Shown here piece after piece: positions 10,611-58,370 of a DNA stretch of 59,397 bases (position 1 is its first letter; each line of letters begins with the position of its first letter). A model generated the notes under the pieces. It did no database searches. It was not told the origin of the DNA and saw only the letters and a list, made by a program, of their open reading frames with translations. The position numbers and the translations under genes were made by a program. The stretch comes from Candidatus Woesearchaeota archaeon (GTDB taxonomy: Archaea; Nanobdellota; Nanobdellia; Woesearchaeales; ARS49), in contig JAWABQ010000004.1 in assembly GCA_038884575.1 (NCBI GenBank), positions 1-59,397 on the forward strand, written 5' to 3'.

Positions 10611-11182
10611 AAATCTACACAAAAACAGGCGATGAGGGGAAAACCAGCTTTGTCGGAGGGGAAAGGGTCTCAAAAAACGACCTAAGAATAGAGGCAACAG
10701 GCACCCTTGACGAGCTAAACAGCGTGCTTGGAGTCACGCTCGGCTTTGTAACAGACGAAAAAATCCAGCAGATACTAATCAAGGCCCAGCACGACCTTTT
10801 CACGCTTGGAGCAGAGCTTTCCTGGTTCACAAGCAAGGCAAGCACAGGCACAAAGCAGCTGCCGCTAACATCACCCCAGCAGGTAAAAGAGCTGGAAAAC
10901 CACATTGACGAGCTTGACGTGCTGCTGACAGAGCCAAAGTCATTCATCCTGCCAAAAGGCACGCAGGCAAGCACTTTCCTGCATTTTGCAAGAACAGTCT
11001 GCAGGCGCGCTGAAAGGCTTATAGTCTCGCTAAGCCAGCAATACCCGCTGAATCCTGAAATAATAAAGTACATGAACAGGCTTTCTGACCTGCTGTATGT
11101 CATGGCAAGGTACGCAAACAAGGAATTTGCCGCAGGCGAACAGCAGCCAATCTACAAGTACTTCAAGAAGAACGGCGAATAA
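10607..11182 (+). CDS. pduO: PduO-type cob(I)alamin adenosyltransferase
   Basis: MKIYTKTGDEG, GTLDELNS, FILP, ARTVCRRAER, YMNRLSDLLY; ATGA overlap with upstream stop. Confidence 0.95.
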   Translation: MKIYTKTGDEGKTSFVGGERVSKNDLRIEATGTLDELNSVLGVTLGFVTDEKIQQILIKAQHDLFTLGAELSWFTSKASTGTKQLPLTSPQQVKELENHIDELDVLLTEPKSFILPKGTQASTFLHFARTVCRRAERLIVSLSQQYPLNPEIIKYMNRLSDLLYVMARYANKEFAAGEQQPIYKYFKKNGE

Positions 11183-12031: not shown

Positions 12032-12041
12032 GGTGACAAGT

Positions 12042-12449
12042 ATGGATGACTGCATTTTCTGCAAAATCATTGCAGGGAAGATTCCTGCAATGAAAGTCTA
12101 TGAGAATGACAAAATCTTCGCATTCCTTGACATAATGCCTGTCAACCCAGGACACACGCTTGTTGTCCCAAGGGCGCACCACGCTGACCTGCTTGAGACT
12201 CCTGATGATGTGCTCAGCGACATGATAACGCGCACAAAAAAGATAGCAACAGCAGTGATGAAGGCAGTAAAAGCAGACGGGTTCAATGTCGGCATAAACA
12301 CAAAGCCAGCAGCAGGCCAGGCAGTATTCCACACCCACTTACACATAATGCCGCGCTTCAGTAATGATGGCCTCAGGCACTGGCCGCACAAAAAGCTCAG
12401 CGATGAGGAAATGAAAAAAGTGCAGGATGCAATAAAGGCAAACTTGTGA
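12042..12449 (+). CDS. HIT family nucleotide hydrolase (intact triad)
   Basis: DCIFCKII, GHTLVVP, FHTHLHIMPR; GAGGTGA SD upstream. Confidence 0.93.
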   Translation: MDDCIFCKIIAGKIPAMKVYENDKIFAFLDIMPVNPGHTLVVPRAHHADLLETPDDVLSDMITRTKKIATAVMKAVKADGFNVGINTKPAAGQAVFHTHLHIMPRFSNDGLRHWPHKKLSDEEMKKVQDAIKANL

Positions 12450-23709: not shown

Positions 23710-24225
23710 CTAAGGCAGCCTTTCAAGCTGTTTCAGGAGGTAGTTTTCACCCCCTTCCTCTATTTTCTCAGGCTTTTTCTCCTCTTTTGGCTTTTCCTCC
23801 TCCTTTTCAAATATCCCGATGTTCTTTGAGCCCTCCCTGAGGTTAAGCTCAACAGTGCTCATCTCCTCCTCTGACAATTGCCTCGGCTGCCACAAAAGGT
23901 TAAGACCATCATTTTCCCTCCTTGGCACAACGTTAATCAGGAAATGGTTGACCCCCTGGCCTGCAGCAATGCCGTTGTTGACTATTATGTTTGTGCCCTC
24001 TGCGCCAAGAGTCTCAAAGACAGCGATTGAGACCTTGTTTGCCTTGTCAAACATTTTCCCAATCACAAAATCAGGAACCTGCTCAAGAATTGCGGCGTGC
24101 TTTTTCGGGGCAAGTATTATGTGTCCGGCTACAGCAGGCTTTGGCGCAAGAAGTATTGCAATCTGGTCGTCCTCAAACAGCATGCCCTTCTTTGCCTTCA
24201 CCAGGTCGCAGATTTCGCAGCCCAT
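23710..24225 (-). CDS. HIT-fold protein, triad degenerate
   Basis: CEIC, GHIILAPKKH, GTNIIVNNGIAAGQ, HFLINVVPR. Confidence 0.85.
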   Translation of the reverse strand: MGCEICDLVKAKKGMLFEDDQIAILLAPKPAVAGHIILAPKKHAAILEQVPDFVIGKMFDKANKVSIAVFETLGAEGTNIIVNNGIAAGQGVNHFLINVVPRRENDGLNLLWQPRQLSEEEMSTVELNLREGSKNIGIFEKEEEKPKEEKKPEKIEEGGENYLLKQLERLP

Positions 24226-24902
24226 TATCTTGCCAAAAGCCGCGCAATGTCATCAAGGTTTGCCCCTTGCGCAGGCTTCACCTCCTTTGCTTTTCTGGCA
24301 GGCTTTTTTGCCTCTTTTTTTGCAGCTGCCTTTTTCGCAGGCGCCTTTTTTTCCGCAGGCCCCTCCTTTTCCATCTCATCTTTTGGCGCCTGAGACTCCT
24401 CCCCTGTTTCAGGCTCTGATTCTGCCTTCAGCCCAAGGGCCTTTGCAAGAGCCTTCCTGAGCACTTGCTGGGCTTTTTTTGCATCAGCAGGCGCCATTCC
24501 CCTTTCCGGCAGCACAAGCCCGACCCCGTCATTTTCCATCCGCGGAATAACGTGCATCATGAAATGCTGGGCCCTTTGCCCTGCTGTAACGCCGTTTGCC
24601 ACAAAGATGTTTGTTCCCTGCGCCTTCAGGGACCTCAGCTGGGCATGCGAAATGCCCTTTGCAACCATTCCAATATGGGCAAGAACATCCTCAGGAATCT
24701 GCGGCATTATCACATAGTGCTCTTTTGGAATAATCAGGACATGCCCTGGGTTTGCAGGGTTTATGTCAAGGACAACAACAACCCTGTCATCCTCATACAC
24801 CTTCTTGGAGGCAACCCTTCCTGCAGCAATATGGCAGAAAATACACTGCTGCCTTGCTGCCTGCGCGATTTCCTCTGGAGACATTGCGCCTTCTTCTGCC
24901 AT
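24225..24902 (-). CDS. HIT-fold protein, triad degenerate, Lys/Ala-rich tail
   Basis: CIFCHI, LDINPANPGHVL, HFMMHVIPR; KKAPAKKAAAKK tail. Confidence 0.85.
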   Translation of the reverse strand: MAEEGAMSPEEIAQAARQQCIFCHIAAGRVASKKVYEDDRVVVVLDINPANPGHVLIIPKEHYVIMPQIPEDVLAHIGMVAKGISHAQLRSLKAQGTNIFVANGVTAGQRAQHFMMHVIPRMENDGVGLVLPERGMAPADAKKAQQVLRKALAKALGLKAESEPETGEESQAPKDEMEKEGPAEKKAPAKKAAAKKEAKKPARKAKEVKPAQGANLDDIARLLAR

Positions 24903-25000
24903 ATCCTCTCTAAACCCTGCCTTGTTTATAATATTTGCCTGTAAAATCGCATTATTTATAAATGAGTATTGCCCGCACACAAGCCATAAAGAGGCGACAA

Positions 25001-25480
25001 ATGGACAAAAGAGGAGTTTCACCGCTTGTTGCAACAATACTCCTGATACTGCTCTCTGTGGGAATGGGTGTTGCAGTGATGAGCTGGGGAGAGGAATACA
25101 TAGAGGAAAAGGCTGAATTTGTCCAAGGAGTGCAGGAAACTCCCACAAGCTGCGACATGGTCTCATTCAACATTATAAAGATAGGAGGGGCTGACCAGCT
25201 CTGCCTTGAAGGCAGCACAATAAAAGGGCTGATTGACAACGGGCCTGACGCAAACATTGCAGGCATTCATGCGCGGATTGTTGCAGAAGGCGGCATAGGA
25301 GTAATCGAAAACATCCTTGACAGGCCGCTGCAAAGGGGAAGCGCTGCACAGGTCGCATTCAGCGCAGGCGGCACAGGACCTGTAAGCCAGATAAAGCTCA
25401 CCCCGAGCGTGACAATCGCAGGCAAGACAGTAATTTGCAGCAAGCAGGCAGTGATTGCAGAGAACATAAGAAACTGCTGA
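25001..25480 (+). CDS. Archaeal type IV pilin/archaellin-like protein
   Basis: Class III signal peptide MDKRG/VSPLVATILLILLSV. Confidence 0.85.
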   Translation: MDKRGVSPLVATILLILLSVGMGVAVMSWGEEYIEEKAEFVQGVQETPTSCDMVSFNIIKIGGADQLCLEGSTIKGLIDNGPDANIAGIHARIVAEGGIGVIENILDRPLQRGSAAQVAFSAGGTGPVSQIKLTPSVTIAGKTVICSKQAVIAENIRNC

Positions 25481-25484
25481 TTTC

Positions 25485-26135
25485 TCAGGAAAACCTTGAA
25501 CTGCCCGGATAAATCCATTTCCTTATGCTGTCCCTCAAACTCCTGCCAAGCGCCTTGCTGGGTGCTTTTGCCTTTTCTGCTGCAATGTCATGCGCTGCAA
25601 GCCCTGTCGGGGCATTGCACTGGTTCAGCCTGCAGCCATCGCCACCCAGCCTCTTGTTGAGGTAATGGAATGAGTTGCCTGTCGAGTTCACCAGCTGCAA
25701 AGGCTTTTTCAGGCTTATGTCATAGCTGTTCTCGACAACAACGCCTGATGAGCCAACCAGCTTTATGCCAACCTGGTTGCGGATAAGGTTGGCATTGATT
25801 ATCTTAACCTGCGAAGAGTTTTTTATCAGGATGCCGATGTCATAGTTCGCAATCTGGCAGTTCCTTATGGTCACATTCCTGCGGTTGACAAGCACAAGAC
25901 CTGCATTCAGGAACTCGCCGTGCATGACGCTTGTCCCGCAGTCAAAGACAATATTGTCTTTTGTGATATTAATCCCCTGCGGGTAATTGTGCGGATAATA
26001 ATTGTCAGCGCACAACAAGGTATCCTGGTCAACCCTGGGCGGGTCAATAATGCCAGTGCATGACCTGCTTGCAGCAGGGGCAGAGGGCAAAAGCAGGCAG
26101 AGAATTACAAGCAGTAAAACAAACCGCAATGACAT
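25485..26135 (-). CDS. Secreted right-handed beta-helix (NosD/PbH1-like) protein
   Basis: Signal peptide; GINITKDNIVFDC, NVTIRNCQIANYDIGI repeats. Confidence 0.8.
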   Translation of the reverse strand: MSLRFVLLLVILCLLLPSAPAASRSCTGIIDPPRVDQDTLLCADNYYPHNYPQGINITKDNIVFDCGTSVMHGEFLNAGLVLVNRRNVTIRNCQIANYDIGILIKNSSQVKIINANLIRNQVGIKLVGSSGVVVENSYDISLKKPLQLVNSTGNSFHYLNKRLGGDGCRLNQCNAPTGLAAHDIAAEKAKAPSKALGRSLRDSIRKWIYPGSSRFS

Positions 26136-26195
26136 ACTACCTCGTTTTTTTGCTCCCGTCTCACACGCCCACTATATAATAGTTTCGGAGAACAA

Positions 26196-27035
26196 TCAGC
26201 CGTGCTTCCAGTGGTGGTGCTGGTAAAGCAGGAACCCCGCAAGGTATGCAAGCACAAAAAGTGCAACCATTGACCAGACCCTTACCTTTTCAGGCATTGC
26301 ATCCATAACTGACTTTGTCATCTTGCCTGTTGACATTATCGGCTTGGTTTTCGGCGTGTTTGTTGAAAGGTTAAGCATTTGCGGCGCTGTTTCCTGCTTT
26401 GGCGGCTCTGCAGCTGCAGGCAATACTGTTTTCGGCTGCTCAGGGGCAGGGCAGTCATTGTCGTTCTCGTAAGTGCAGGAAGGGGAACAGTAAAAATCGC
26501 CGTGTTCGCAGGGATACACTGCCCCTGCGCCATTGCACAGGTTTACATCGCAGAAATCCTTGTCAAGCTCTTTGTTCGTAATCCAGAACGAGTTGAACTT
26601 TGATGCCAGCGCGCTCACAGGCTTCACAATGCTCTTGTCGGCATTGCTCTCAAACCTGTTCTCAAATGCCTGCAGCATCCTCACGCCAATCCTGTTCTTC
26701 AGCAGCGCATTCTGCACTATGGTATTCCTGTTGCCCTCTTTAACATAAATGCCCACGTCATAATTCAGGATGTTGCAGTTCTTCACAGTCACGCCGTCAG
26801 CGCCGTCAATTATTATCCCCTGGCCGTCCTGCACTGCAGTCCCGCGGATTATTGCGCCATTGCAGTCAAGCGTGACATTGTCAGCCCTTATTGTTATCCC
26901 GCTTGGCACATCGTATGCCCTGTTGCACAAAGTTGTGTCCCTGTTCACTTGCATAAGGTCAAATGCTGCCTCGCACTCTGCAAAAACACCAGGCAAAAAT
27001 GCAAAAAGCGCCAAAAACAGGAAAACAAGCCTCAT
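26196..27035 (-). CDS. Membrane-anchored beta-helix protein, paralog of neighbour
   Basis: Signal peptide; GITIRADNVTLDC, GVTVKNCNILNYDVGI; C-terminal TM. Confidence 0.8.
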   Translation of the reverse strand: MRLVFLFLALFAFLPGVFAECEAAFDLMQVNRDTTLCNRAYDVPSGITIRADNVTLDCNGAIIRGTAVQDGQGIIIDGADGVTVKNCNILNYDVGIYVKEGNRNTIVQNALLKNRIGVRMLQAFENRFESNADKSIVKPVSALASKFNSFWITNKELDKDFCDVNLCNGAGAVYPCEHGDFYCSPSCTYENDNDCPAPEQPKTVLPAAAEPPKQETAPQMLNLSTNTPKTKPIMSTGKMTKSVMDAMPEKVRVWSMVALFVLAYLAGFLLYQHHHWKHG

Positions 27036-27247
27036 GAAAACCTCTTCATTTCAGCAAAAACAACCAGCGCAGGCAGATAAATCAGCACGAGCACGAAAAT
27101 CACCACAAAAGTAAGCGTGTTGAACTGCGCCTCAAGAATCCTGAGAAGCGCATACGCAAAAGGCAGGGCAAGAAAAGGCTCAAGAAAATCCCAATACCTG
27201 TACTGTTTGTGCAGCAGGAATCCCAAAAAACCCCTTTTTTCCTTCAT
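27032..27247 (-). CDS. Small membrane protein
   Basis: 71 aa, two hydrophobic segments, ATGA overlap. Confidence 0.6.
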   Translation of the reverse strand: MKEKRGFLGFLLHKQYRYWDFLEPFLALPFAYALLRILEAQFNTLTFVVIFVLVLIYLPALVVFAEMKRFS

Positions 27248-27286
27248 AAGGCTGAAAATGCGAAAACCAGCATAAAAACATTTTGG

Positions 27287-28090
27287 TCATATCGGATAAA
27301 AGTCCAGGTAATCCTCCTCTTCGACAAGCAAGCCGCCCTGCCAGACCTCAACGCGCAAAGGCATTCCTGCAAGGTCATCAATCCAGATGTGCGTCTTCCT
27401 GTTGGCATCCTGCAAGTCAGTAAACTTGTAAAGGGTTGCAGGCCGCTTGCCGATGTGGCTGCCAGGCAGTATTGTAACCGGGTTGCGGTAAAGCAAATCC
27501 TCAAGCCACTTTGCCGGCATCTTGAATGCAAAAACATCAAACTTCACAGGAAACCTTGCGCCAAGGAATTTATCGCACACAGTCCCGACCTGCTGTTTGG
27601 CAAGCGCCTCGGGAGGAACGCATTCTGCGCTTGCAGCCCTTCCAACAAAATCAAGATAGACTGTGTTTACAACAACATTCACGCGCCTGCCATTGATTTC
27701 CCGGTCGCCAAGCTGATACTCATTCACAAGCTTCCTAATAATGCTGCCATTTGCAACAACAACCTCGTCGCCCTTGTAAAGAAAACGGTATCCTTTCAGG
27801 CCTGTTGCATTTGCGTAAAGCAGGTTGACAATTGTTGGCTTGTACTTTCCTGAAATTTCTGCTGTCTCCCTTGCCTTTTGCGCAGCCTCCTCATATTCCC
27901 TTTGCTTTTCAGCCTCAATTTCAGCAGCAAGGTCAATCGTGTCACAGATTCCGTTGCCATTCAAGTCCCTGCAGCAGCCGCTGTCTTTTGGAATTTCAGG
28001 CCACCTGCACTGCGATGTTTGCTGCACTTCACCAGGCGCTGCAGCACACCCTGCAAGAACCAGCACCAGGAAAAAGGCAGTCAGCCGCAT
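27287..28090 (-). CDS. Putative lipoprotein
   Basis: LVLAGC lipobox; CCRDLNGNGICD Ca-binding-like motif. Confidence 0.7.
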   Translation of the reverse strand: MRLTAFFLVLVLAGCAAAPGEVQQTSQCRWPEIPKDSGCCRDLNGNGICDTIDLAAEIEAEKQREYEEAAQKARETAEISGKYKPTIVNLLYANATGLKGYRFLYKGDEVVVANGSIIRKLVNEYQLGDREINGRRVNVVVNTVYLDFVGRAASAECVPPEALAKQQVGTVCDKFLGARFPVKFDVFAFKMPAKWLEDLLYRNPVTILPGSHIGKRPATLYKFTDLQDANRKTHIWIDDLAGMPLRVEVWQGGLLVEEEDYLDFYPI

Positions 28091-28097
28091 CTTCCAC

Positions 28098-28490
28098 CTA
28101 ATTAGAGAATTTTCCCCCTGTCGGGTTCAGATAGTGCTTTGTTGCATACCCCCACTGAGGGTTGCCGAAATTAGCAGCGCATTTTTCCAGGCAGGCCTTT
28201 GCTTCCTGCCGCCTTCCGGAAACATTAAAGGGGCGCTTTGCCTGCAGAGCAAGGCAGTCCCACCTGCAGTCAGCATAATTTGCGTGCTGCCTTACAACAA
28301 TGCTGTTTGTCAGGCCGGCCCAGGGGTCATCAAGCTTGCTTTTCTGGACTGTCTTTGGGTCAAATACATATGGCTTTGCAGCCATCCCTGTTGTTCCGCC
28401 ACCTGCGAGCCAGGCAAAACCTGCAAGCGCTGCAATTGCAACAACTGCAAAAACTACAAGCGCAGCATTCCCTCTTTTTTCACCAATCAT
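28098..28490 (-). CDS. Pilin-like secreted protein
   Basis: EKRG/NAALVVFAVVAIAAL class III-like signal; TTGMAA; two CxxxC motifs. Confidence 0.6.
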   Translation of the reverse strand: MIGEKRGNAALVVFAVVAIAALAGFAWLAGGGTTGMAAKPYVFDPKTVQKSKLDDPWAGLTNSIVVRQHANYADCRWDCLALQAKRPFNVSGRRQEAKACLEKCAANFGNPQWGYATKHYLNPTGGKFSN

Positions 28491-28571
28491 GCACCTGAAA
28501 ATAATCATCCTGTATTTAAATTATGCTGCCCGGGCAAAAGGTTTTTTAACGCATTTCGCATACTGCAAGCC

Positions 28572-29417
28572 ATGGGCGGAAACATCAAATATTGCCACAG
28601 GCTGCTTGGCGACAGGTATGATGAGGCATTTTTCAACGCTGTCTGCAGGTTTCCGCTGCTCTCGCGCGAAGAGGAAAAAAAGCTCGGAGCGCTTGCCCGC
28701 AGCGGCGACCACGAAGCCCGCCAGAAAATGTTCTTCTCAAACACCAGGCTTTTGGCCAAGAGGGCAAAATCATTTGCATACAAGTACCGCAGGCCCGGCC
28801 TTTATGCCACATTCTTCATGGACGGCATTGACGGCTTGTACAAGGCAATCTCGCGGTTTGACCCGGCAAGGAACTGCAGGTTTTCAACTTATGCCACGTA
28901 CTGGATTGACCAGGCAATACGCAAAAGCGCTGATTTGAAGCTGATGATAAGCATGCCGCCTTACATGGCAGAGTGGGTCAATATTTTTGCAAGGGCAGTA
29001 AGGGAATACAAGCGCACGCACTACGCCGAGCCGTCTGATGACGAAGTGCTGTTCCAGATAAGGCAGAACGGCATAAAAAGCATGACGCTTGCGCAGGTCA
29101 GGCGGATACGCAAGGCATCAGACAAAGCACGCCATTTATCGCTTGACAACATGCTAGAAATCCCTGACACCAACAGGCCTGAAGAATCTCCCGCTGATAT
29201 CATAAGCAAAGGAACGCTTGATGAGGTCATAAGCAGCACGCTTGATAAGCGCGAAGCAGCAATAATCCGCCTAAGGTACGGGCTTAACGGCCAGCAGCCA
29301 ATGCTGCTTGAACAGGTTGGAAAAATCCTGAAGCTCACAAAAGAGCGCGTGAGGCAGCTGCAAAAAAACGCAGTCAGCAGGCTCAGGGATGCGCTTTTGA
29401 AGCGCGGAATCCCCTGA
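28572..29417 (+). CDS. Sigma-70 family (RpoD/RpoS-like) homolog, 281 aa
   Basis: Region 1.2 FPLLSREEEKKL, 2.1 ARQKMFFSNTRLL, 2.3 RFDP..RFSTYATYWIDQAI, region 4 REAAIIRLRYGL..LEQVGKILKLTKERVRQLQKNAVSRLR. Confidence 0.92.
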   Translation: MGGNIKYCHRLLGDRYDEAFFNAVCRFPLLSREEEKKLGALARSGDHEARQKMFFSNTRLLAKRAKSFAYKYRRPGLYATFFMDGIDGLYKAISRFDPARNCRFSTYATYWIDQAIRKSADLKLMISMPPYMAEWVNIFARAVREYKRTHYAEPSDDEVLFQIRQNGIKSMTLAQVRRIRKASDKARHLSLDNMLEIPDTNRPEESPADIISKGTLDEVISSTLDKREAAIIRLRYGLNGQQPMLLEQVGKILKLTKERVRQLQKNAVSRLRDALLKRGIP

Positions 29418-29474
29418 CAGCCCTGCATTTTTCCCCCGAAACAATTTTATACGCCATAAACAAAGCAAAAAATC

Positions 29475-29756
29475 ATGGCAACAACCACAAGGATATGGCC
29501 TGGCCCTGCAAAGGCAGCTGCTGACATCACAAGGCAGATTGAACAGCTCAGGCTGCTTTCAAAGCGAGGGTTTGAGAACACAAATGACCTCTGGAGAGTA
29601 TTTCCGCTGCTGACTGACAACGAAATCAGGGAAAAATTTTACATCCACATTTCAGTGCCATTTGAAAAAGTAAGAATACCAATAATAATCACACTTATCA
29701 AGCGCCAGATAGCGCTCCTCCAGCAAGAACTCAAGTGGCTCCTAAATGCAAGCTGA
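29475..29756 (+). CDS. Hypothetical protein
   Basis: 93-aa ORF, TTTTATA site ~25 nt upstream. Confidence 0.55.
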   Translation: MATTTRIWPGPAKAAADITRQIEQLRLLSKRGFENTNDLWRVFPLLTDNEIREKFYIHISVPFEKVRIPIIITLIKRQIALLQQELKWLLNAS

Positions 29757-29791
29757 AAAGAAAATAATCCCTGCCAGCATCAGGGTGTTAA

Positions 29792-29880
29792 AGCCTCCGG
29801 CGAGAGTTGCACTCGCGACCCCCACCTTTTTGCTGCAACTGCATACCAAGGTGGTGCTATAGCTACTAAGCCACGGAGGC
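29792..29880 (-). tRNA. tRNA-Thr(GGT) with 16-nt intron (29828-29843)
   Basis: GCCTCCG/CGGAGGC, U73, stem CCACC/GGTGG, TTGGTA-intron-A; atypical T-loop TGCAACT. Confidence 0.85.
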
Positions 29881-29922
29881 ATACGCTCAGAAGTCAGGGA
29901 TATCTTATTTAAAGATTGTTGT

Positions 29923-30435
29923 TCATTTCCTTTCAGGGCTCAGGATGTGCCTGTAGAGCTCTTTTGCATTTCCTGTGACAGGATCCTTGCCGAAGACTAT
30001 GTAATGATAAGTTCCTTCAAATGGCACTGGCTTTGGAAATGTTGTTTCTGCACTTTTCGCCCCCTGTTCAACATAGAATGGCGCAGTGTAGCTAAGTTCT
30101 GGAATTGTTATTTTTACAGGAGCATATCTTGCCCAGTCATCAATAAGCAGCCTGTCAATTGTTAGCTTCATTCCTGTCCAGCCCTCAGCCTTGCGGTAAA
30201 GGTTAAAATCAATGTATGGATTGTTCTGTTTTATTTTCTCAGCAAACCTTTGCGTTCCTGCCTGCTGTTCAGTTTTTTGTTTTTGCTGTTCTGAAATGGA
30301 ATTGAAGGCAAGGTATGCCAATCCTGACAGTGCAATGCCTGCTGCCAAGCCAAGACCAAAAATCCTGCACCTATGAGTGTCTTTTTCAGGATTATACCGC
30401 CCAGTGTCTTCGTCTTCCCCACTACGCCTCTTCAT
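29923..30435 (-). CDS. Hypothetical membrane-anchored protein
   Basis: 170 aa, one N-terminal TM, between two tRNA genes. Confidence 0.6.
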   Translation of the reverse strand: MKRRSGEDEDTGRYNPEKDTHRCRIFGLGLAAGIALSGLAYLAFNSISEQQKQKTEQQAGTQRFAEKIKQNNPYIDFNLYRKAEGWTGMKLTIDRLLIDDWARYAPVKITIPELSYTAPFYVEQGAKSAETTFPKPVPFEGTYHYIVFGKDPVTGNAKELYRHILSPERK

Positions 30436-30474
30436 AAAAACGCCCTATTGCGGGTTATTTAAAAAATTAATGCA

Positions 30475-30590
30475 AGAATGCCCGGGACAGATAATGAAAA
30501 TCCCAACTCACAAGCTCGTCAGGGATTTTCAGACCTGTCCTTAAGGTCTATGTTTCTATCTGACGGTTTTTATCAGAATGCCCGGGACAG
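30475..30590 (-). repeat. 16-bp direct repeat of the tRNA-Leu 3' end enclosing hairpins
   Basis: AGAATGCCCGGGACAG at 30475 and 30575; TGAAAATCCC/GGGATTTTCA and AGACCT/AGGTCT inverted repeats between. Confidence 0.8.
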
Positions 30591-30661
30591 GATTTGAACC
30601 TGCGAACCCCTACGGGACCGGATCTTAAGTCCGGCGCGTTTAGCCACTTCGCTACCCGGGC
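30579..30661 (-). tRNA. tRNA-Leu(TAA)
   Basis: GCCCGGG/CCCGGGC, A73, stem CCGGA/TCCGG, loop CTTAAGA, long variable arm. Confidence 0.95.
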
Positions 30662-30710
30662 GCATCCATTTGTATTTATCCATGCTTTAAAAAGTATGCT
30701 GTCCTGAGAA

Positions 30711-31049
30711 TTATTTGAGCCTTTTCCGCAGCGCAGCCAATTGCCTGTTTATGTCAGCAAGGCTCTTGTGGTACTTCGGCTCAGGCGCGCTCTCAGCAGG
30801 CTTTGGCTTTTCGCTTTGCACTGCAAACCTTGACCTGCCGAAAACCATCACTACAACAACAAAAACACCCATAAGCAGCCCCACAGCTGTAAGGAAAGGC
30901 TTAATGTCATTTATCCCGCTTGAAGAAATGCTGTGGTTTCCTGCTGCAAGCCCTGTGGGAGTGCTAAACCTCATCACAGCCAAGGTAATCATGAAAAGCA
31001 TCAGGAACAGGACAAGGTGGCTCAGTGTATGAAGTCGTTCATTGCTCAT
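30711..31049 (-). CDS. Small two-TM membrane protein
   Basis: Hydrophobic N-terminus followed by PTGLAA, second TM, basic tail. Confidence 0.65.
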   Translation of the reverse strand: MSNERLHTLSHLVLFLMLFMITLAVMRFSTPTGLAAGNHSISSSGINDIKPFLTAVGLLMGVFVVVVMVFGRSRFAVQSEKPKPAESAPEPKYHKSLADINRQLAALRKRLK

Positions 31050-31138
31050 TGCTGCACTATCAGAAGTACAGGTATATAAAAGTAACCCTTGTGCTGTTTT
31101 GGAAAGGATTTTAAACCAAGTGCCATTAGTATACCATC

Positions 31139-31642
31139 ATGAAGGGAGTGGTATTTGTTTTAGTGCTGCTGATTGCAGTGCCGGCAGTAATTGCCGCAGC
31201 AACTGCAGCGCCGCGAGAGTGCAACACCCGATTGGACTGCCTAAAGCTGGCAAAAGCATCACCAGTCGCGTGCCAGGCAGGATTTTCACCAAAGCTGGTG
31301 CCTGACTGCGATGTTGGCAAGTGCGTCTATTGTACACCTGCGACGAGAAAGCTGCAGGTGCAGTGCGACAGGGATTATGACTGCGCAGGAAAAATAACCT
31401 GCAATGCGCCCCTGTCAGCGCAGTGCGTAAACAACAAATGCATCTGCACTGCGCAAAAGCGCACTGAGTGCTACACTGACAACGACTGCACAAGAAGGTT
31501 TTTGGGCAGGGCGCCGCAAAGGATGTCATGCCTGCGCGGCAAGTGCATTGCCCCCTTGCAGTCAGTTGTGCTTACGCCAAGGGCATGGGGAAGGCCAGTG
31601 ACATCAGTGCAGTCTGTAATCGCGCCTTTAAACAGCACATAA
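31139..31642 (+). CDS. Secreted cysteine-rich repeat protein
   Basis: Signal peptide; three ECNTRLDC / QCDRDYDC / ECYTDNDC modules each closing in C-x-x-G/N-K-C. Confidence 0.75.
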   Translation: MKGVVFVLVLLIAVPAVIAAATAAPRECNTRLDCLKLAKASPVACQAGFSPKLVPDCDVGKCVYCTPATRKLQVQCDRDYDCAGKITCNAPLSAQCVNNKCICTAQKRTECYTDNDCTRRFLGRAPQRMSCLRGKCIAPLQSVVLTPRAWGRPVTSVQSVIAPLNST

Positions 31643-31704
31643 GGCACAGGACAAAAAAAGAGAAAAGGCACAGCAGCAATTGCTGCGCCATTTTTTTCTT
31701 CTTT

Positions 31705-33573
31705 TTACTGCGTCACAAGCACTTCAACATCCTTGCCAAAGATTTTCTTCAGGCTCTCAAAGATAGGTTCCCTGATGAACACCTTTGGCAGTATTGCAGT
31801 CTTTGACAGCGCCTTCTCGAATTCCTCCCACGAGCTTGGCTGCAGCGGTCCAAGGCTGCCGTCCCTCTCGACAGCAGCCTTCTCAATCACCTTTTCAGGA
31901 GCATCAAGGTTTCTGATGACAAAGGCAACAGGGCCCAGCAGGGTCACTTCGCCAAACTTGTCACCATACTTCACCCTGACCTTTGTCTGCTCAATCTCCC
32001 TTCCGCGCCTGCGCTGCAAATGCTCAACAAGGAACTTCACGAGCTCTGAAGAGTTCTTGCGCGTCTTCTCAAGGTCTGTCTTTGTCAGCTTTCCTGCATC
32101 ATAAGCCTTTTTTGCCTCAAGGAACTCATTAAGCAGCCTGAGGAACCTTGCAGGAATCTTGCCTGTTGAGATAAGCTTGTCCTCAAAAGTGCTTATAAGT
32201 TCCTCCTCAAGCACTTTTTCCTCGCCCTCTGCCTTCAGCACGTCGCGTATTACTGTCAAAAGGGTTTCGTGGAGGCTGACAATCATCTCCTCCTCCTTTG
32301 TCTTCTCAATCTGGGCAAAGAGCTTTTTGAGGCGCTTCATGTACTTCTCAGAATCCTCAAGCAGCTTGTCAAGCTCCTTTCCTGTCACCTCCTTCTTCAC
32401 GCCATGCTCAATGTCCTTCCTTGTCTGGATGACATTCTCAAGCATCTTCACGTATTCCTCCTCAAGGAGTTTCTCCTTTTTCACAAAAATCTCCCTAAGG
32501 ACCTCGCAGGTCTCCTTTGGAGCAGGCGGCGGAACCCCGTACAGCATGAGCGCTGCCTGAGTCGGCGTAAGGATGCTCCAGAAGAAATCCTCTGTTGCAA
32601 TGTCCTTGAACCTGAACCTGATGCGCTCAAGCCCCTGCTCGCCTGTGCTCATGTACATGTCAATTGCCTCAGGCGAAGGCTTGATTTTGCCCATCTTGAG
32701 CAGCTGCTTCCACGGCATGAAGATTCCGCGGTCAAAGAACGGCACGCCATCCCTCAGGAAAGTGAACATGACAGGGTTTGCCTCCCTAATCGCGTCCCAA
32801 AAGTCTGTCAGGATGTATGTCTGGATGTTTATTTTGTTCTTGATTCCTGTTATGTCGCCGGCATCCATCCCCATATTTATGATTATTGCGCGGAGCTTGT
32901 CCTTCAGCTCTGCGCGGGTCATCTTCTTGACATCAGTATCGTCTATGACGATGAAAACATCAATGTCGCTTTCCTTTGTCGCCCTGCCTGTGACAAGGCT
33001 GCCCCCAAGGCAGTATGCAACAATGTATTTCTCGAATTTTTTCAGGACCATGCTCTTGTGAACTTCCGCAATCTTTATTGCACCAAGCATTCCTGTGTCA
33101 TACACGGGCGCAGAGAGTGCTATAAGCTGCAGCCAGTCATACTTTCCATCATAGCAGTTCTGCCAGAGCTCTGTCATAAGCAGGGTCTGCGGGACTATTG
33201 TCTTGTCAATTTCGCCTGCCGTGGTGTCCATTATTGCGGTGAGCTTGTCCTTTAATTCCTGCTTTGACATTTTTGACGGCTCTGTATCATCAATGAGCAC
33301 GAGCAGGTGGTGCTTGTCCTTGATCTGGTCATAGCGCTTCTGCTCCTCAGCAAGAATTTCAGGAGGCAGCGATGCTGGCGGCGCCTTTGGCGGAGGCATT
33401 AATGCAATTCCCTTGATGTACTTGTCAAACTTCTCGACAACAGATTTCTGGAATTTCTCAAGCTTTGCCTTTAATGCGGCAAGCTTTTCCCTGATCTCAG
33501 GCGGCAGGCTTGCATCCTGCGGCTGCTCCTCCTTTTGCACCTTCCTGTCTTCTTTTTTCGGTGATTTTGCCAT
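31705..33573 (-). CDS. Pol-beta-type nucleotidyltransferase (MNT) fusion with HEPN-like domain
   Basis: GGSLVTGRATKESDIDVFIVIDD; internal duplication; QAALMLYG..RKDIEH. Confidence 0.8.
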   Translation of the reverse strand: MAKSPKKEDRKVQKEEQPQDASLPPEIREKLAALKAKLEKFQKSVVEKFDKYIKGIALMPPPKAPPASLPPEILAEEQKRYDQIKDKHHLLVLIDDTEPSKMSKQELKDKLTAIMDTTAGEIDKTIVPQTLLMTELWQNCYDGKYDWLQLIALSAPVYDTGMLGAIKIAEVHKSMVLKKFEKYIVAYCLGGSLVTGRATKESDIDVFIVIDDTDVKKMTRAELKDKLRAIIINMGMDAGDITGIKNKINIQTYILTDFWDAIREANPVMFTFLRDGVPFFDRGIFMPWKQLLKMGKIKPSPEAIDMYMSTGEQGLERIRFRFKDIATEDFFWSILTPTQAALMLYGVPPPAPKETCEVLREIFVKKEKLLEEEYVKMLENVIQTRKDIEHGVKKEVTGKELDKLLEDSEKYMKRLKKLFAQIEKTKEEEMIVSLHETLLTVIRDVLKAEGEEKVLEEELISTFEDKLISTGKIPARFLRLLNEFLEAKKAYDAGKLTKTDLEKTRKNSSELVKFLVEHLQRRRGREIEQTKVRVKYGDKFGEVTLLGPVAFVIRNLDAPEKVIEKAAVERDGSLGPLQPSSWEEFEKALSKTAILPKVFIREPIFESLKKIFGKDVEVLVTQ

Positions 33574-33574
33574 T

Positions 33575-34456
33575 TTAAACCTCCGCTAATTCCGCTTCCT
33601 GTGTTATTGTGATTGTGCCATTCGCGAGCTGCCTGAACGCCTCCATTGCAGTCGCTCCTGCTGTTATCACGCGCTGCACAAAGCCGAATGCAATGTCGTG
33701 TAGCCCATTGCTTGCAGGCTCAGGAAGTATGTTGCCCCCTATCCCTGCAATGTTGTTCTCCCTGATTGCCTTCATCCACGCGAGAGAGAACGCAAATGCC
33801 TTTGCCTCCTCGTCATGCGGCGACCTCAATGTGCGCGTGAGCACGTGCCCAATCTCGTGGCCTATGGTCAGCATAAGCCTGTCAAGCTGGTCTGCGCGCG
33901 CAAAAACCTCGCTTGCCCCGCGGCTGTTCGCATTAAGGCTGAAGCCCATGATGCCGTCATTCCAAGCGCCCGCATGCTCCCTGTGCGCCTTCCTGAATTC
34001 CTTTTCATTAAGGACATGGATTATGATGTCTGAAGGCAGGCTTTCGCCTGTTGTCGCCCTGAAGGCAGCCTCAATGTCATCCCTTATTTCTGCTGCATCG
34101 CCGACAAAGCGCGCAGTGCTCCCTGGCCTGAGGAAAGTGTCTGCAACAAAATAATCAAGCGGCGCCCTGCCGGCAAGGTAAGCCCCTTTTGCAGAGCCGG
34201 GCACATAATGCATTGCCGCACATGAAGCCCTTGCAACCGACTCATGGCTTACCATGCTGTCAATCGAGGAATGAGCATACAACTTGCTTTCTGCATTCCA
34301 GCTTCCGCCGTATGAAGCGCTCGGGCTTCCCCATGAGAACATGCCCCCGTAAGAACCCCTGCTGCTGGAATAATTCATGCTGCAGTAAACCGGCTGCACG
34401 CCATAACTGCCGCAGCCAGGGCTTCCATATCCTGCTGAAGAGCCGCAATAGCTCAT
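33575..34456 (-). CDS. Putative zinc metalloprotease with Ser/Tyr/Gly-rich N-terminus
   Basis: IGHEIGHVL..HDEEAKAFAF. Confidence 0.7.
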   Translation of the reverse strand: MSYCGSSAGYGSPGCGSYGVQPVYCSMNYSSSRGSYGGMFSWGSPSASYGGSWNAESKLYAHSSIDSMVSHESVARASCAAMHYVPGSAKGAYLAGRAPLDYFVADTFLRPGSTARFVGDAAEIRDDIEAAFRATTGESLPSDIIIHVLNEKEFRKAHREHAGAWNDGIMGFSLNANSRGASEVFARADQLDRLMLTIGHEIGHVLTRTLRSPHDEEAKAFAFSLAWMKAIRENNIAGIGGNILPEPASNGLHDIAFGFVQRVITAGATAMEAFRQLANGTITITQEAELAEV

Positions 34457-41721: not shown

Positions 41722-42523
41722 TCTCAACCACCTTTTTAACAGCAGCAACCCAGAGCACCCTTGTCCAGGCAACAGCAGGAAGCGAAACAACAATGCCGAA
41801 AACAAGGGGACAGTAAGGGCTGTAGCTCATAAGCGCAAAGGGCACTGCAACAGCCATGAAAAGCACTGCTGCGCCAATAATGTGCACAGGCAAAAGGAGC
41901 CTCCATGCCTTTGCGCAAGCCACAAAAGTGCTCCTGAAAACATTGGCAGGCAATGAGCCGTATGACGCAAACACAAAATACGCAAAAGCCCAATAAACCA
42001 GCAATGCCGTCATGTTCGCAGCCTTCAGCCCCATCACAGGCATTATTGAGGATGTTGCGCCCTCAACCAGCTTCAATACAACAATGCTCACAGGAACAAG
42101 GGCAAGAATCCAAAGCAGGCTCATTCCAAGAAATTTCAGTGCAAAATCAGCAGGGGAAACCTTTTTTCCAAGGGTTTTGTGCGCCAAAAACCACACAATA
42201 CCCTTGCAGGCAAGCCATGCAACAGCAGCCCCTCCCAAAAACAGGAAGATGTACTGCAGCAGCAAATGGTATTCTGCTGCAAATTCCTGCGAGGCGCCAA
42301 ATGAGATGTTCTGCAGGGTTTCTGCCTCTGCAACAGCCCTTGCCTGCTCGCCAATCATTTGCGTCAGCCTGGCAAGGTGCTCGCTTGCCCTGCTGAAAAC
42401 ACTGTAATGCAGCCTCACAATGGCATAAACAAACACGAAATCAACAGCAACAGCAATGAGTCCAAGCCTTTTGTTGCCCACAAACGACTTCCACGACTTT
42501 GAAACAATAGAAACAAAGCTCAT
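41714..42523 (-). CDS. Multi-pass membrane protein
   Basis: About 6 TMs; ATGA overlap with giant ORF stop. Confidence 0.75.
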   Translation of the reverse strand: MSFVSIVSKSWKSFVGNKRLGLIAVAVDFVFVYAIVRLHYSVFSRASEHLARLTQMIGEQARAVAEAETLQNISFGASQEFAAEYHLLLQYIFLFLGGAAVAWLACKGIVWFLAHKTLGKKVSPADFALKFLGMSLLWILALVPVSIVVLKLVEGATSSIMPVMGLKAANMTALLVYWAFAYFVFASYGSLPANVFRSTFVACAKAWRLLLPVHIIGAAVLFMAVAVPFALMSYSPYCPLVFGIVVSLPAVAWTRVLWVAAVKKVVENE

Positions 42524-45500
42524 CTTGTCATCTTGCAGCACTCGCAGTCTGCTGCTTCAAGTGATTCATATCCCTGCGTTATGCAATCATCTCTTGGTAT
42601 TCCACAGGTGCCATTAAGCTCTGCACAAGTCTTTGCTGCTGCTGGCGCAGGAGCAGCCGGAGCTGCTGCTGGTGCGCTTTGGAATTCCCACTTGTAGCTG
42701 CCATACCTGCTGACAATGTCAATAGGCGCAACTTTCTGCACGTCAGATGCATTCAAAGCCACGTAATTGTCCCCTGCGTACTGGTATGCCCTGTATTCCC
42801 ATTTGCTTTCGCCCGAATCAAGCTTAACGAAAGTCATTGTAACATCCTTGTTTGCAGTAATGTTGGGGTAAGTTATGAGAAGCACCTGGCCTTTTGGCTT
42901 CTCATTAAGCTCTGTGATTGTGTGCATTACTGACTGCACGTATTCTTTTTTCGCGCAACGCACCTTGAAATCAACTGTCTTTTGCTGCTGCTCGCCTGTT
43001 TCAGGGTCTGTGCTTATCTGGTCTGTCTGGGTGCCCTGACTGTTTGCATCATAAAGCGTGAATACTGCCTTCCAGCTCACAACAGTGTTTGGATTGCACC
43101 CCTGCTCCACAGGCCCTTCTTTCACAGGCACATATTTCACAAGCAGCTGCAATGCATTCACGTTGTTAAACTCAGCCCTGCTGAAATCAATCGACACAGA
43201 GACAGTCTGCGCAACACCTGCTGCTGTAAGAGCACCTGGCATGTTGAATGACACGTGGTTTACAGGCACGTCAGGCGACTGATAGCCGGATGCAAGCACA
43301 TTGCCAACAGCATAGCGCATGTACCCATTGCGGTCAGGCTCAAGCTTTGGAGCAGCAGGGTTAATCTGCCAGACCTCGTACTTTGACTCTGCTGCTGTCG
43401 GCTTGCCGTATTCAGGGAAGTTTATCAGGAATGTGTAATTGTTGGCAGCAGGGTTAAAGCCTTCTTTCACATTGATGAAAGTCACAAACTTCTTGGTGGA
43501 TATCACAGGCCATATTGCCTGCTCTGGCTCTGCAGCCCTTGCGCCTGTAATGCTGTGGCGCGCTATTGTTTCCTCATTCACCTCAAACCTGCCCAGGATA
43601 TCATCACCTGGCTCAGGGACAAGCTTTGTGTAAACCCCGTTTGTGGAAAGCTCATAAGGCAGGCTTGTTGCCTCATTGGTAATCTGCAGCGGCTTTGTGG
43701 TGCCGTCAGGAAGCAAACCGTCAACAACGCGGTTTGCAGCATCCCGTATCTCATATGTCAGGAACTTCCTTCCCTGGCTCTGGAACCTCCTGTCTTCTGA
43801 GATTTTTTGCTTGATTTCAAGGCTGAAATTAAGCTTGTCTGTGAGGGCAAAGGCAGGCTGGTTTGCAGGAAGCACTGCTTTTGCAGACAGGATTTTAATC
43901 CCGCTCTCCTGCTCTCCAAACAAACACCTGAACTTGCCGCTGAACGCATCAAGCGCGCAGAACGCAGGGGCTGCCCCGCCTGTCTCGCGGATTGAGCACT
44001 CTGCCTTGCCTGTGCGCATCTGCCTTGTCATCGGGTCCATCCATTCCCATTCAAGGATTGCAGTATCATACCTGTAGCCTGCATTTGCATAGGAATTCTG
44101 CGGACTGACAACAAACGGTGCATCAAAGCTGACAAAGTCATACTTCTTTGCCAATCCTGTACCAAGGTCAGGGGCGCTCACAGTCATGACCTGCTCTTTT
44201 CCATAACAGTCGCATTTGCCATTGGGATAGTCGCGCAAGTCGCAGCTGAAATCAGGGCTGCACTTCAGCTTAAGCCAGTACCTTACATCTGCGCCTGCAA
44301 TAAGGCCTCCGGCAATCCTGTAAGCCCAGGTTGTGAGCCCGCTCGGGTCTGTTGTCGGGTCATAGCTGATGAAAGTGCGCTCACAGGTTGTCAGCGCAGC
44401 GCTTGTGTCAAGCGGCATTTCCTCAACCTGCTCCTGGAACAAGCCCCTTACATTAAGGTCCCATGTTCCTGTAAATGCCCAGATGCAGATTGCATGCACA
44501 AGCTTGCGCTCGCTGAACAATGACCTGAACAAGGGAGAATCACCATATCGCTGGTTTATGCTCTTTGTCACTGCAGTGCCCGCGCCTGTGATTGCAGAAA
44601 GCACATCATCAAAGCCCCCAAGCCCAAGCCTCATCCCAACCCCTGGAGTGTTGAACTTCTGCGTGAAGCAGGTTATGACCTCATAAAACAGGTCGCATAT
44701 TGTTCCTGAAAGCTTTGCCTCGCAGAAACCCTCGCTTCCCTCGCCTGTCAGGAGTATCTTGCTGAAGCAGCCATGCAGGGCATTAAGCACCCCGCGCCAC
44801 ATCTGCAAATAGCCAATGACTGCAGGCAGGCATATGCACTGGATGCTCCTCAGCATCCCGGACTTGGGCTCAACAATGTATGTTTTCTCAGGAGTCCCGA
44901 CAATCTCATAAACCTGCTTCCATGCCTGCCTTATGTTGCCTGAAAGCTGGCAGGGCGTGATTGTGTAGCCGCTCGGGCTGCTTCCCTCGCAAAGCGCATC
45001 ATAAAGGCACTTTATCTGCGCCTCCTCTGTCAACTTTTCCTGCGTCTTTCCTGCCTGGGTTTTCACAGATGTCTGCTGCTCAAAGCACCTGGTCACATCT
45101 GTCTCAAGCGCTGCAGTAAGGCCTGAGCGCAGGGTCAGCTGGTTTGCCTTCTTAACGCCCGCCTCCTGCTCTGACATGCCCTGGAACTGCACTGTCTTTG
45201 CAACATAGCCCGAATAAACAGAATATCCTGTGGCTGTCCCGCCGCCTCCAAGCTCTGCAATCGAAGGGCTCCTGAACGAAAGGCGGCCTGCAGTGAAATT
45301 CCTTGGCACTACAAACAGGAAAACATCATTGTTGTCAGCGCCAGGCCTTGCAGGCAACGGGCCCTCCCACCGCGCCTCAACCCTCACAGGCTGCGCCTCT
45401 GGCTCCCCTGTATTTGACTCGCAGAAGCCCGCGACTGCATTCCACACCTGGTTGCAGCCAAGCTTTGCAAGGTCTTCTGAGTTTGCCTGCTGCGCTGACA

Positions 45501-50194: not shown

Positions 50195-51072
50195 TGTTCA
50201 AGCCTCCTGAGGGTGTTTCTCATGCACGTCCTGTACCATGCCATGAATGCAAAATAAACAATGAACGAGACCGCCAGTGCAGCCTTGTCCTGCACAAGCC
50301 GCGGAAGCTGGATAAGCACCACATAAACAATAAAAAAGTAGCAGTACGGGTGGACAAAGCTGATTATGCTGCCAAGCCCTGTGCCAAAAGCATCCTTCAG
50401 CGCAATTCCAATCGCGCGGTTTTTCGTGTATGAATAATGCAGGACTGTGGTGATATGGGTATAAAGCAGCATCATGATTATGAAAAGGTATGCGCCTGTA
50501 ACCTGCCTGGCATTTGCAAGCAAAAGCACCATAAACCCGAACCAGACAGTGCACCAGGCAATGCTGATTCCAAACATTCGCGCAAGGAATGACAGCCTGG
50601 CGCGCTTTCCAAGCAAAACAAGCCAGATGAGGGAGCGTGCAACAGAATACAGCGCAACAAAAATCAGCCAGAATATTATGACAGCAATTATTGCCTTCAT
50701 AAACACATTTCCAATTATGTCATTATAAGTGGTTAGCATCTCCTCAGTGAGCGTGGCTCCAACCTGGATTGGCTCAAGAGCCGCAATGTTCCTCATCATC
50801 ACAGCATACAATGCAAAGCCAAGGAGCACAACAAGGACAACAAATGCAGCATCAATGAACATCACCAGAACAAAATCCTTTTTCAGCCTGAACGAGCCAA
50901 GAAAAGCCCTGAACTGCCTTATTGCATATTCCTTGTTGCTGAACAGCAATACAAGCCCTGCAATTGCAATAAGCGCAGCCTGAACATAGCCCCTTTTGTA
51001 GGACAGGACTGCAATTATTACAAGAACCAATCCGATTATCCGCGGCATTGTGACAATCTCCTTTGGTTTCAT
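50191..51072 (-). CDS. Multi-pass membrane protein
   Basis: About 7-8 TMs; ATGA overlaps on both sides. Confidence 0.78.
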   Translation of the reverse strand: MKPKEIVTMPRIIGLVLVIIAVLSYKRGYVQAALIAIAGLVLLFSNKEYAIRQFRAFLGSFRLKKDFVLVMFIDAAFVVLVVLLGFALYAVMMRNIAALEPIQVGATLTEEMLTTYNDIIGNVFMKAIIAVIIFWLIFVALYSVARSLIWLVLLGKRARLSFLARMFGISIAWCTVWFGFMVLLLANARQVTGAYLFIIMMLLYTHITTVLHYSYTKNRAIGIALKDAFGTGLGSIISFVHPYCYFFIVYVVLIQLPRLVQDKAALAVSFIVYFAFMAWYRTCMRNTLRRLEQ

Positions 51073-58233: not shown

Positions 58234-58370
58234 GCTCAAACCCTTTTTCAACCGATGCACGAAAAAACCGCAGATGGGTATATAAATTTAACTATATTAT
58301 ATAGACGATGAATGTTACCTTCTGCGAATGACGATAAATATTTATATACGCTCTCCAAGAATGCAAAATT

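Follow-up and report, generated by a model that had tools for sequence, protein, structure and literature searches.

The DNA analysed here is a stretch of 59,397 nucleotides (the window) from contig JAWABQ010000004.1 of the Candidatus Woesearchaeota archaeon assembly GCA_038884575.1. It carries an intact gene of the bacterial-type sigma-70 family, which extends from the ATG at 28572 to 29417 on the forward strand and encodes a protein of 281 amino acids (P0001). The identity of the gene and its location in a Woesearchaeota (DPANN) genome are close to certain. Most likely, though at about even odds only, P0001 represents a horizontally acquired, sigma-derived and sequence-specific DNA-binding regulator of a few genes; this role and an archaeal donor are both inferred.

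Sigma-70 class genes (fam00359) have been reported in DPANN archaea, most prevalently in Woesearchaeota, by Castelle et al. 2021 (PMC8204110), who excluded misbinning, found no anti-sigma factors and describe the role as unclear. A 2018 review (PMC6126073) credits the first description of archaeal sigma factors to Rinke et al. 2013. No paper assigning a function to archaeal sigma-70 proteins was found in the literature searched. Since the phenomenon has been published earlier, P0001 adds one member to it only, a new, divergent and species-specific one. The case resembles the published ones in that a bacterial-type sigma-70 gene occurs in a Woesearchaeota genome together with TBP, TFB and TFE and without a recognisable anti-sigma factor. 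It differs in that P0001 belongs to a rare subfamily of four clusters with a remodelled region 2.1-2.2, and in that the gene is confined to this species within the genus and located in a tRNA-adjacent islet.

Identity and domain structure of P0001

The reading frame of the sigma gene is open from 27825, its part upstream of 28572 overlapping two genes on the opposite strand. The nearest relative, P0002 (282 amino acids), has its first methionine at the position equivalent to ATG 28572. The original prediction, which had been made from the DNA letters alone, placed the gene at 28540..29417; the assignment to the sigma-70 family and the end of the gene hold, whereas the start has to be corrected to 28572, with 28540-28571 representing promoter and spacer.

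Pfam matches above the cut-off were obtained for region 4 (Sigma70_r4, PF04545; 45.5 bits, cut-off 24.1, E 5.2e-12) and region 2 (Sigma70_r2, PF04542; 30.2 bits, cut-off 24), while region 1.2 (Sigma70_r1_2, PF00140) scored 21.2 bits and thus slightly below its cut-off of 22. The NCBIfam model of the sigma-70 superfamily (TIGR02937) matched with 75.1 bits (cut-off 42.9). The best match among solved structures was RpoS of 7vf9 (E 5e-35); the alignment comprises residues 18-280, covering region 1.2 from residue 18 and passing through region 3, though P0001 has no match to Pfam Sigma70_r3. An AlphaFold2 model based on 141 sequences (mean predicted local distance difference test score, pLDDT, 86.3) shows helical domains at residues 16-123, 130-188 and 207-277. 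Despite the Pfam miss, region 3 is probably present as a fold, residues 130-188 forming a three-helix domain in this model (pLDDT about 90-98). In a Foldseek search with the model, sigma-S and sigma-A chains ranked first. Of the four regions named in the original prediction, 2 and 4 are clearly recognisable and 1.2 and 3 probably so.

Based on the model and the RpoS alignment, regions 1.2 and 2 (sigma-2 domain, residues 16-123) are encoded at 28617..28940 (+). According to the model, the sigma-3 domain (residues 130-188) follows at 28959..29135 (+) and a short 3.2 linker of low confidence (residues 189-206) at 29136-29189 (+). The sigma-4 domain with the helix-turn-helix of region 4.2 (residues 207-277), identified by both Sigma70_r4 and the model, is located at 29190..29402 (+).

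With only about 15 residues ahead of region 1.2, P0001 lacks region 1.1 and does not qualify as a group 1 (primary) sigma factor; the RpoD models of NCBIfam scored 102-125 bits (125 for the C-terminal domain model) against cut-offs of 354-572. Nor is it an RpoS according to the equivalog model TIGR02394 (145.4 bits, cut-off 378.7). Bacterial group 2 RpoS (7vf9, 5ipl) is nevertheless the best match in sequence and fold, sharing the apparent region order 1.2-2-3-4, a similar length and most of the residues that read the -10 and -35 elements. P0001 deviates from RpoS by a changed region 2.2, an insertion of two residues ahead of it (after region 2.1) and a shorter 3.2 linker, and its genome is devoid of a bacterial core polymerase.

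The sigma module also aligns with MzaA of the MZA anti-phage system (NF041931, E 2.6e-37 in NCBIfam; PDLC02203, E 5e-19 in PADLOC). However, P0001 matches only the C-terminal sigma part of a profile of roughly 700 residues (positions 415-656 of 683 in PADLOC) and reaches 129 bits against a cut-off of 800. A role in defence was rejected on these grounds and in view of the lack of Mza partners nearby; the neighbours of the sigma gene gave no PADLOC match at all.

Archaeal host and physical linkage

The genome comprises 780 kb in 24 contigs and is 92.6% complete. The window identifies the chromosome as archaeal by its genes for aEF1A, aEF2 and diphthamide synthase and also encodes a prepilin-type peptidase; the closest relatives of the single RpoA' are named Candidatus Woesearchaeota or Nanoarchaeia. 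A single Rpb2-type gene adjoins the RpoA' gene, and one TBP, two TFB and TFE-alpha are encoded as well. Searches of the genome with Rpb1 and Rpb2 models revealed no bacterial RNA polymerase and no second Rpb1- or Rpb2-type gene; since these models also match each of the ten bacterial genomes used as controls, any bacterial beta or beta' subunit would have shown. The sigma gene therefore resides, as in the published DPANN cases, among archaeal genes of its contig, and the earlier claims of an archaeal chromosome and of initiation by TBP and TFB both agree with the gene content.

A Logan contig of 5,793 bases from a hot springs metagenome, possibly the source sample, covers 26000-29820 without any difference at a depth of 19.4. 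It joins three archaeal genes of the left flank to the sigma gene, to the downstream open reading frame ORF93 and to the first 29 bases of a tRNA-Thr gene. The next Logan contig (29852-31747, depth 17.3) is linked to it by a piece of 91 bases over the tRNA-Thr gene with four variant letters. The tetranucleotide distance around the sigma gene (0.206-0.207) is ordinary for this genome (mean 0.198, standard deviation 0.039).

It is thus extremely improbable that the sigma gene is a bacterial fragment which was misassembled or misbinned into an archaeal genome. The contig from the independent assembler, flanks that are syntenic with four congeners, an archaeal promoter, host-like codon usage and the ordinary tetranucleotide distance all speak against such an artefact, and the junction support that had been called for at the outset exists for the left flank, the sigma gene and ORF93. 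The same features, tetranucleotide distance aside, argue against a fresh bacterial import. A relative's hit does look like an artefact of this kind: locus L002 on a contig of about 6.6 kb (G038:C67) encodes a primary-type sigma factor with regions 1.1-4 that groups with sigma factors of the candidate phyla radiation (Kaiserbacteria/Paceibacter; support 100/96). It is probably a misbinned contig of that radiation and not an archaeal gene, its metagenome-assembled genome having 6% contamination.

Promoter and codon usage

The upstream regions of 677 host open reading frames are A-rich at -37..-33, T-rich at -31..-27 and again A-rich at -26..-23. This genome-wide profile is the layout of a TFB recognition element (BRE) and a TATA box in leaderless spacing. 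The promoter of the sigma gene at 28536..28549 (+) is of the same archaeal, leaderless type, with AAAA at -36..-33 and the TATA-like TTTTTTAA at -30..-23. Its position weight matrix score of 10.4 bits corresponds to the 95.4th percentile of 675 host genes and was reached by a fraction of 0.0001 of 20,000 random positions. The matrix was built without the sigma site, but its refinement used the better-scoring half of the genes, which makes the percentile somewhat generous for all strong sites.

In synonymous codon usage the sigma gene ranks at the 49th percentile among 678 open reading frames of the host and is host-like, as originally stated. A run of five T at 29428..29432 (+), read from the sequence 11 nt past the stop codon, is a possible archaeal oligo-T terminator, and the gene is probably monocistronic.

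Retained and remodelled residues

Among 136 other sigma factors, 49 alignment columns are conserved to at least 85%, and P0001 retains 39 of them. The retained columns comprise FSTYA, W111, I112 and Q114 in regions 2.3/2.4 as well as E258, R259, R261 and Q262 in region 4.2. The segment for reading and melting of the -10 element (residues 104-118) contains FSTYATYWIDQAI at residues 104-116, and TKERVRQ is found at residues 256-262, in agreement with the earlier observation that both motifs are well kept.

Six of the ten lost columns fall within residues 58-86 (regions 2.1-2.2), namely T58, L61, a gap at a conserved D, F81, D84 and I86. Here the family consensus DLIQEGNxGLx is replaced by TFFMDGIDGLY (residues 80-90, 28809..28841, +), a change common to P0001 and P0002 which includes the previously noted replacement of DLIQEG by TFFMDG (residues 80-85). 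The helix of regions 2.1-2.2 would correspond to the one which, in structures of bacterial holoenzymes, makes the main contact with the beta' clamp helices.

Region 2 (residues 48-125), with the altered helix included, is the part best conserved between P0001 and P0002 (59 of 78 residues, 76%), compared with 51% identity in sigma-4 and 32% in sigma-3, which argues for selection. Judged by this comparison the helix appears to be remodelled but conserved, and not decaying.

The other sigma factors of the order differ from P0001 in this respect: in 47 rows from genomes of the same order the canonical DLIQEGNxGL is kept to about the same degree as in 15 named bacterial rows. Its retention hints that the core-binding surface of most other Woesearchaeal sigma factors in the sample still has a partner in archaea.

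Many of the sigma homologues (loci L002-L040 and L163-L186, from the same order and class) are long proteins of 400-770 amino acids, with region 1.1 or a large insert between regions 1.2 and 2. Several are arranged in tandem, such as three each in G063:C3 (17298-20247) and G216:C6 (9114-11812).

Relatives and distribution

In a word-indexed search P0002 was the sole close relative, being 54% identical across 95% of the length, and the best further full-length match reached 37%. An exhaustive search of 1.84 billion representatives yielded 65,210 matches at E <= 0.001 and only 47 at E <= 1e-30. The nearest match outside the 50% cluster of P0001 was P0121 with 39% identity, and no close bacterial, viral or phage donor was found among these representatives. 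P0001, P0002, P0121 and P0124/P0270 share the two-residue insertion between regions 2.1 and 2.2, weak r2 matches and the lack of an r3 match in Pfam; in the first three, WIDQ replaces WIRQ. Relatives on viral contigs of IMG/VR were not detected with the patterns used, and phage sigma factors are at most 34.6% identical to P0001; a viral origin was rejected on this basis.

In the careful maximum-likelihood tree of 55 rows, whose bootstrap is not fully settled and which omits 35 of the 90 rows of the quick tree (longest branches and near-duplicates), P0001 and P0002 group together with support 100/99 and the subfamily of four clusters with 98/88, without any supported sister. Other archaeal sigma factors are scattered among bacterial and unnamed rows. 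As the supported branches force at least five changes of the label "archaeal", archaeal sigma factors do not form one clade; archaeal-only subclades do exist. L011 (G032) had appeared as an archaeal sister of the subfamily in the quick trees (support of 98 in the SH-like approximate likelihood ratio test) and was dismissed, since the careful tree does not support it; its branch exceeds four changes per site and it is 22% identical. Rows from unpublished genomes in the 90-row tree and the motif table are L004 (G015), L028 (G206), L034 (G135) and L163 (G420), of which L028 and L163 were used in the careful tree too.

Searches of the family (77 genomes), the order (401) and the phylum (401) identified no orthologue of P0001; the next-best scores were 131 bits in the family (G420) and 177 bits in the phylum (G221) compared with 469 bits for the P0001 gene itself. 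More distant homologues are common. Matches to P0001 at E <= 1e-5 occur in 116 of the 401 genomes of the order (87 of 282 high-quality ones), often as tandem copies, matches to the subfamily profile at the same threshold in 31 of the 77 family genomes, and matches at E <= 1e-30 in 51 of the 401 phylum genomes, including other orders of the class. These tallies include the unpublished genomes G015, G135, G144, G155, G206, G233, G267, G356, G390, G420 and G455. None of the 33 loci found on genome contigs belongs to the subfamily, and among the at least 80 metagenome loci listed none exceeds 37% identity. Judging from these comparisons, P0001 represents a rare, fast-diverged subfamily of four clusters.

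In the course of these searches a permuted and duplicated sigma protein without region 3 was encountered: P0003 (447 amino acids), named Candidatus Acetothermia bacterium, has the order region 4, 1.2-2, region 4, 1.2-2.

A variable islet beside tRNA-Thr

The sigma gene and ORF93 together occupy a variable islet of about 1.26 kb (approximately 28530..29790), delimited by tblastn and DNA comparison, which spans from the promoter of the divergent pilin-like gene to the 3' end of tRNA-Thr. Fourteen proteins of the region 23710-34456 were compared by tblastn with the corresponding loci of the congeners G001, G003, G004 and G006. Twelve of them were matched, ten in all four congeners and two in G003 and G004 only, with anchor proteins being up to 91% identical. 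The sigma protein and ORF93 gave no match at the syntenic locus of any of the four, where the two neighbouring genes are separated by 313-506 bp of differing content. DNA similarity to the congeners restarts exactly at 29791, and an orthologue of the sigma gene was absent from all seven congeners searched. Most simply, this lineage would have acquired a cassette which had become adapted to archaeal transcription beforehand; several independent losses among the congeners would be a less simple alternative.

ORF93 (29475..29756, +) encodes an orphan of 93 amino acids that is predicted to be helical. It has its own BRE/TATA-like promoter (29437..29451, +; 8.2 bits, 86th percentile of host genes). 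No homologue was detected in a word-indexed search of 5.8 billion proteins, no match was obtained in Pfam, PHROG or PADLOC, and Atlas look-alikes were weak (0.82 or lower). Lacking a homologue and an informative look-alike, ORF93 was rejected as a partner or anti-sigma factor of P0001.

The tRNA-Thr(GGT) gene, whose 3' end abuts the islet, is located at 29792..29880 (-) and contains a 16-nt intron (Rfam 49.2 bits; intron option of ARAGORN). It was missed by ARAGORN in default mode and by the Rfam gathering run on the whole window, the Rfam match being obtained in a 300-base search, and is 79-96% identical in the four congeners. A tRNA-Leu gene follows at 30579-30661 (-). On the other side of the islet, the divergent gene at 28098..28490 (-) probably starts at the seventh codon of its open reading frame: in both G003 and G004 the tblastn alignments start only at residue 7, and with its TATA box at 28515-28523 the promoter score for this start is at the 81st percentile. 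The description of the flanks as pilin-like and tRNA genes is therefore correct for both tRNA genes, while "pilin-like" is based on an N-terminal motif only, with no Pfam match.

The islet contains no integrase or other element genes. An attachment-site-like (att-like) repeat of the tRNA-Thr 3' end was not found at its far side with up to three mismatches, and there are no convincing flanking repeats. In G004:C1 (L174) the spot syntenic with the islet (4811-5316) harbours three copies of a tRNA-Thr 3'-end fragment, which look like integration scars, and a small open reading frame of about 47 amino acids on the opposite strand.

The 9-mer ATCCCTGAC has only three exact copies in the window, all within 1.4 kb: inside the sigma gene (29160-29168, +), in the interval from the TATA box to the first base of tRNA-Thr (29893-29901, -) and downstream of tRNA-Leu (30518-30526, -). 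The genome contains 20 copies, most of them within coding sequence, where about 6 would be expected by chance in the genome; the pattern was noticed post hoc. Further downstream, a cysteine-rich protein of 167 amino acids, whose N-terminus is signal-like and which Pfam matches weakly to "late nodulin" (34.4 bits), is encoded at 31139-31642 (+) and is present in two of the four congeners only.

Possible functions of P0001

The sigma gene would have arrived in this lineage within the two-gene islet beside tRNA-Thr. Given that the promoters within the cassette are archaeal already, it would probably stem from a different archaeon or from a mobile element of archaea. P0001 keeps the residues for reading and melting DNA (regions 2.3/2.4 and 4.2), while the helix used in bacteria for docking on the beta' clamp (2.1-2.2) has been rebuilt and the 3.2 linker is short. 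Its most likely role would be to bind specific DNA sequences and so regulate transcription of a small accessory regulon, beside the TBP/TFB/TFE machinery and not as a canonical initiation factor. Of the two functional ideas in the original prediction, the repurposed DNA-binding regulator would be the better fit; an effector aimed at the RNA polymerase of a bacterial host finds no support, and the remodelled docking helix speaks against it.

Several points weigh against such a regulator. When core polymerase is absent, DNA binding by sigma factors is generally weak. A search for DNA targets was negative; pairs of TTGACA and TATAAT counted genome-wide at spacings of 8-35 show no peak at 16-18 bp. 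TTGACA-N16-18-TATAAT with up to three mismatches is enriched about 1.4-2.3-fold over 20 dinucleotide shuffles; these candidate sigma-70 promoters were rejected as a coding artefact because the spacing counts show three-base periodicity only. Since most other Woesearchaeal sigma factors keep the canonical motif, the altered helix of P0001 could also reflect relaxed constraint toward loss. The sigma gene has no conserved partner gene, ORF93 being an orphan, and its GC content at third codon positions (0.63, 94th percentile) is slightly atypical for the host. No RNA run was found to contain 27000-31000, and the one metatranscriptome of the same study has no contig over 26000-32000; neither result weighs for or against expression.

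The most probable of the alternatives, although unlikely, regards the sigma gene as leftover cargo of an archaeal mobile element or virus that integrated at tRNA-Thr and was once regulated by P0001, the gene now being an orphan with little or no role in the cell. The position of the islet at a tRNA 3' end, the variability of this spot among all congeners examined, the three tRNA 3'-end fragments in G004, the orphan ORF93 and the patchy distribution of the sigma gene are consistent with it. It has to be reconciled, however, with an islet that lacks an integrase, an att-like repeat of the tRNA end and other element genes, with the lack of relatives on viral contigs, with two intact genes under good promoters and with one contig carrying both the islet and its left flank at equal depth. 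As this explanation concerns the origin more than the function, it may be compatible with either mechanism. Slightly less probable, yet the main rival as to mechanism, is that P0001 would still function in initiation or melting, now with the archaeal RNA polymerase, its 2.1-2.2 helix docking on the clamp coiled-coil of RpoA', the homologue of the beta' clamp helices, either at promoters of its own or in promoter opening, in competition or cooperation with TFE. The high conservation of region 2 between P0001 and P0002, the retained melting and -10 residues and the surface partner suggested by the 47 Woesearchaeal rows would fit this scenario. In addition, 38 Woesearchaeal RpoA' sequences show hardly any variation in the coiled-coil (residues 303-354), which would thus offer a fixed target for the sigma helix. 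However, the BRE/TATA layout is genome-wide with all general factors present, a sigma-type promoter signal was not detected in the genome, and the gene is accessory, not being found in seven congeners. Co-folding of sigma residues 14-130 with RpoA' 76-480 gave a score of 0.00 in two runs without controls and carries no weight either way.

A more specific version, in which the rebuilt 2.1-2.2 helix adapts the sigma factor to the archaeal RNA polymerase clamp, serving a small set of sigma-dependent promoters as part of a cassette mobile between archaea, has only a slim chance of being correct. It seems slightly less probable again that P0001 is an effector acting on the RNA polymerase or the promoters of a bacterial host or neighbour. 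The complete set of bacterial sigma domains would suit this purpose, but it is precisely the beta'-docking helix that is changed; moreover, no signal-like N-terminal segment was seen on reading the P0001 sequence (no predictor was run), and no secretion genes adjoin the sigma gene. Taking these points together, we prefer the DNA-binding regulator, at the even confidence given above.

Other genes in the window

Two adjacent ribonucleotide reductase genes (5434-8283 and 8451-10610, +), of which one has the N-terminal domain of class II B12-dependent enzymes and the other an ATP-cone, are followed by a cobalamin adenosyltransferase gene (10538-11182, +). Three HIT-domain genes are located at 12033-12449 (+), 23710-24225 (-) and 24225-25166 (-), the last two being adjacent. 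Six large genes encoding proteins of 293-1,910 amino acids, for which Pfam detected only fragments of fn3, Glucodextran_B and Big_3_3, occupy 42520-58260 (-) and are probably a giant surface-protein operon.

Implications

What sigma-type proteins do in cells that possess only an archaeal RNA polymerase has been a question since their first sighting in single-cell genomes. P0001 is a convenient candidate for addressing it, being compact (281 amino acids) with a single domain set, a clear archaeal promoter, retained DNA-reading residues and a changed docking helix, and the four congeners without the sigma gene at the same locus provide a natural "minus" control. If docking on the clamp were true, sigma-dependent promoters would run on a eukaryote-like polymerase in this archaeon. 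For the family as a whole, the canonical core-binding motif in most other Woesearchaeal sigma factors may matter more than P0001 itself.

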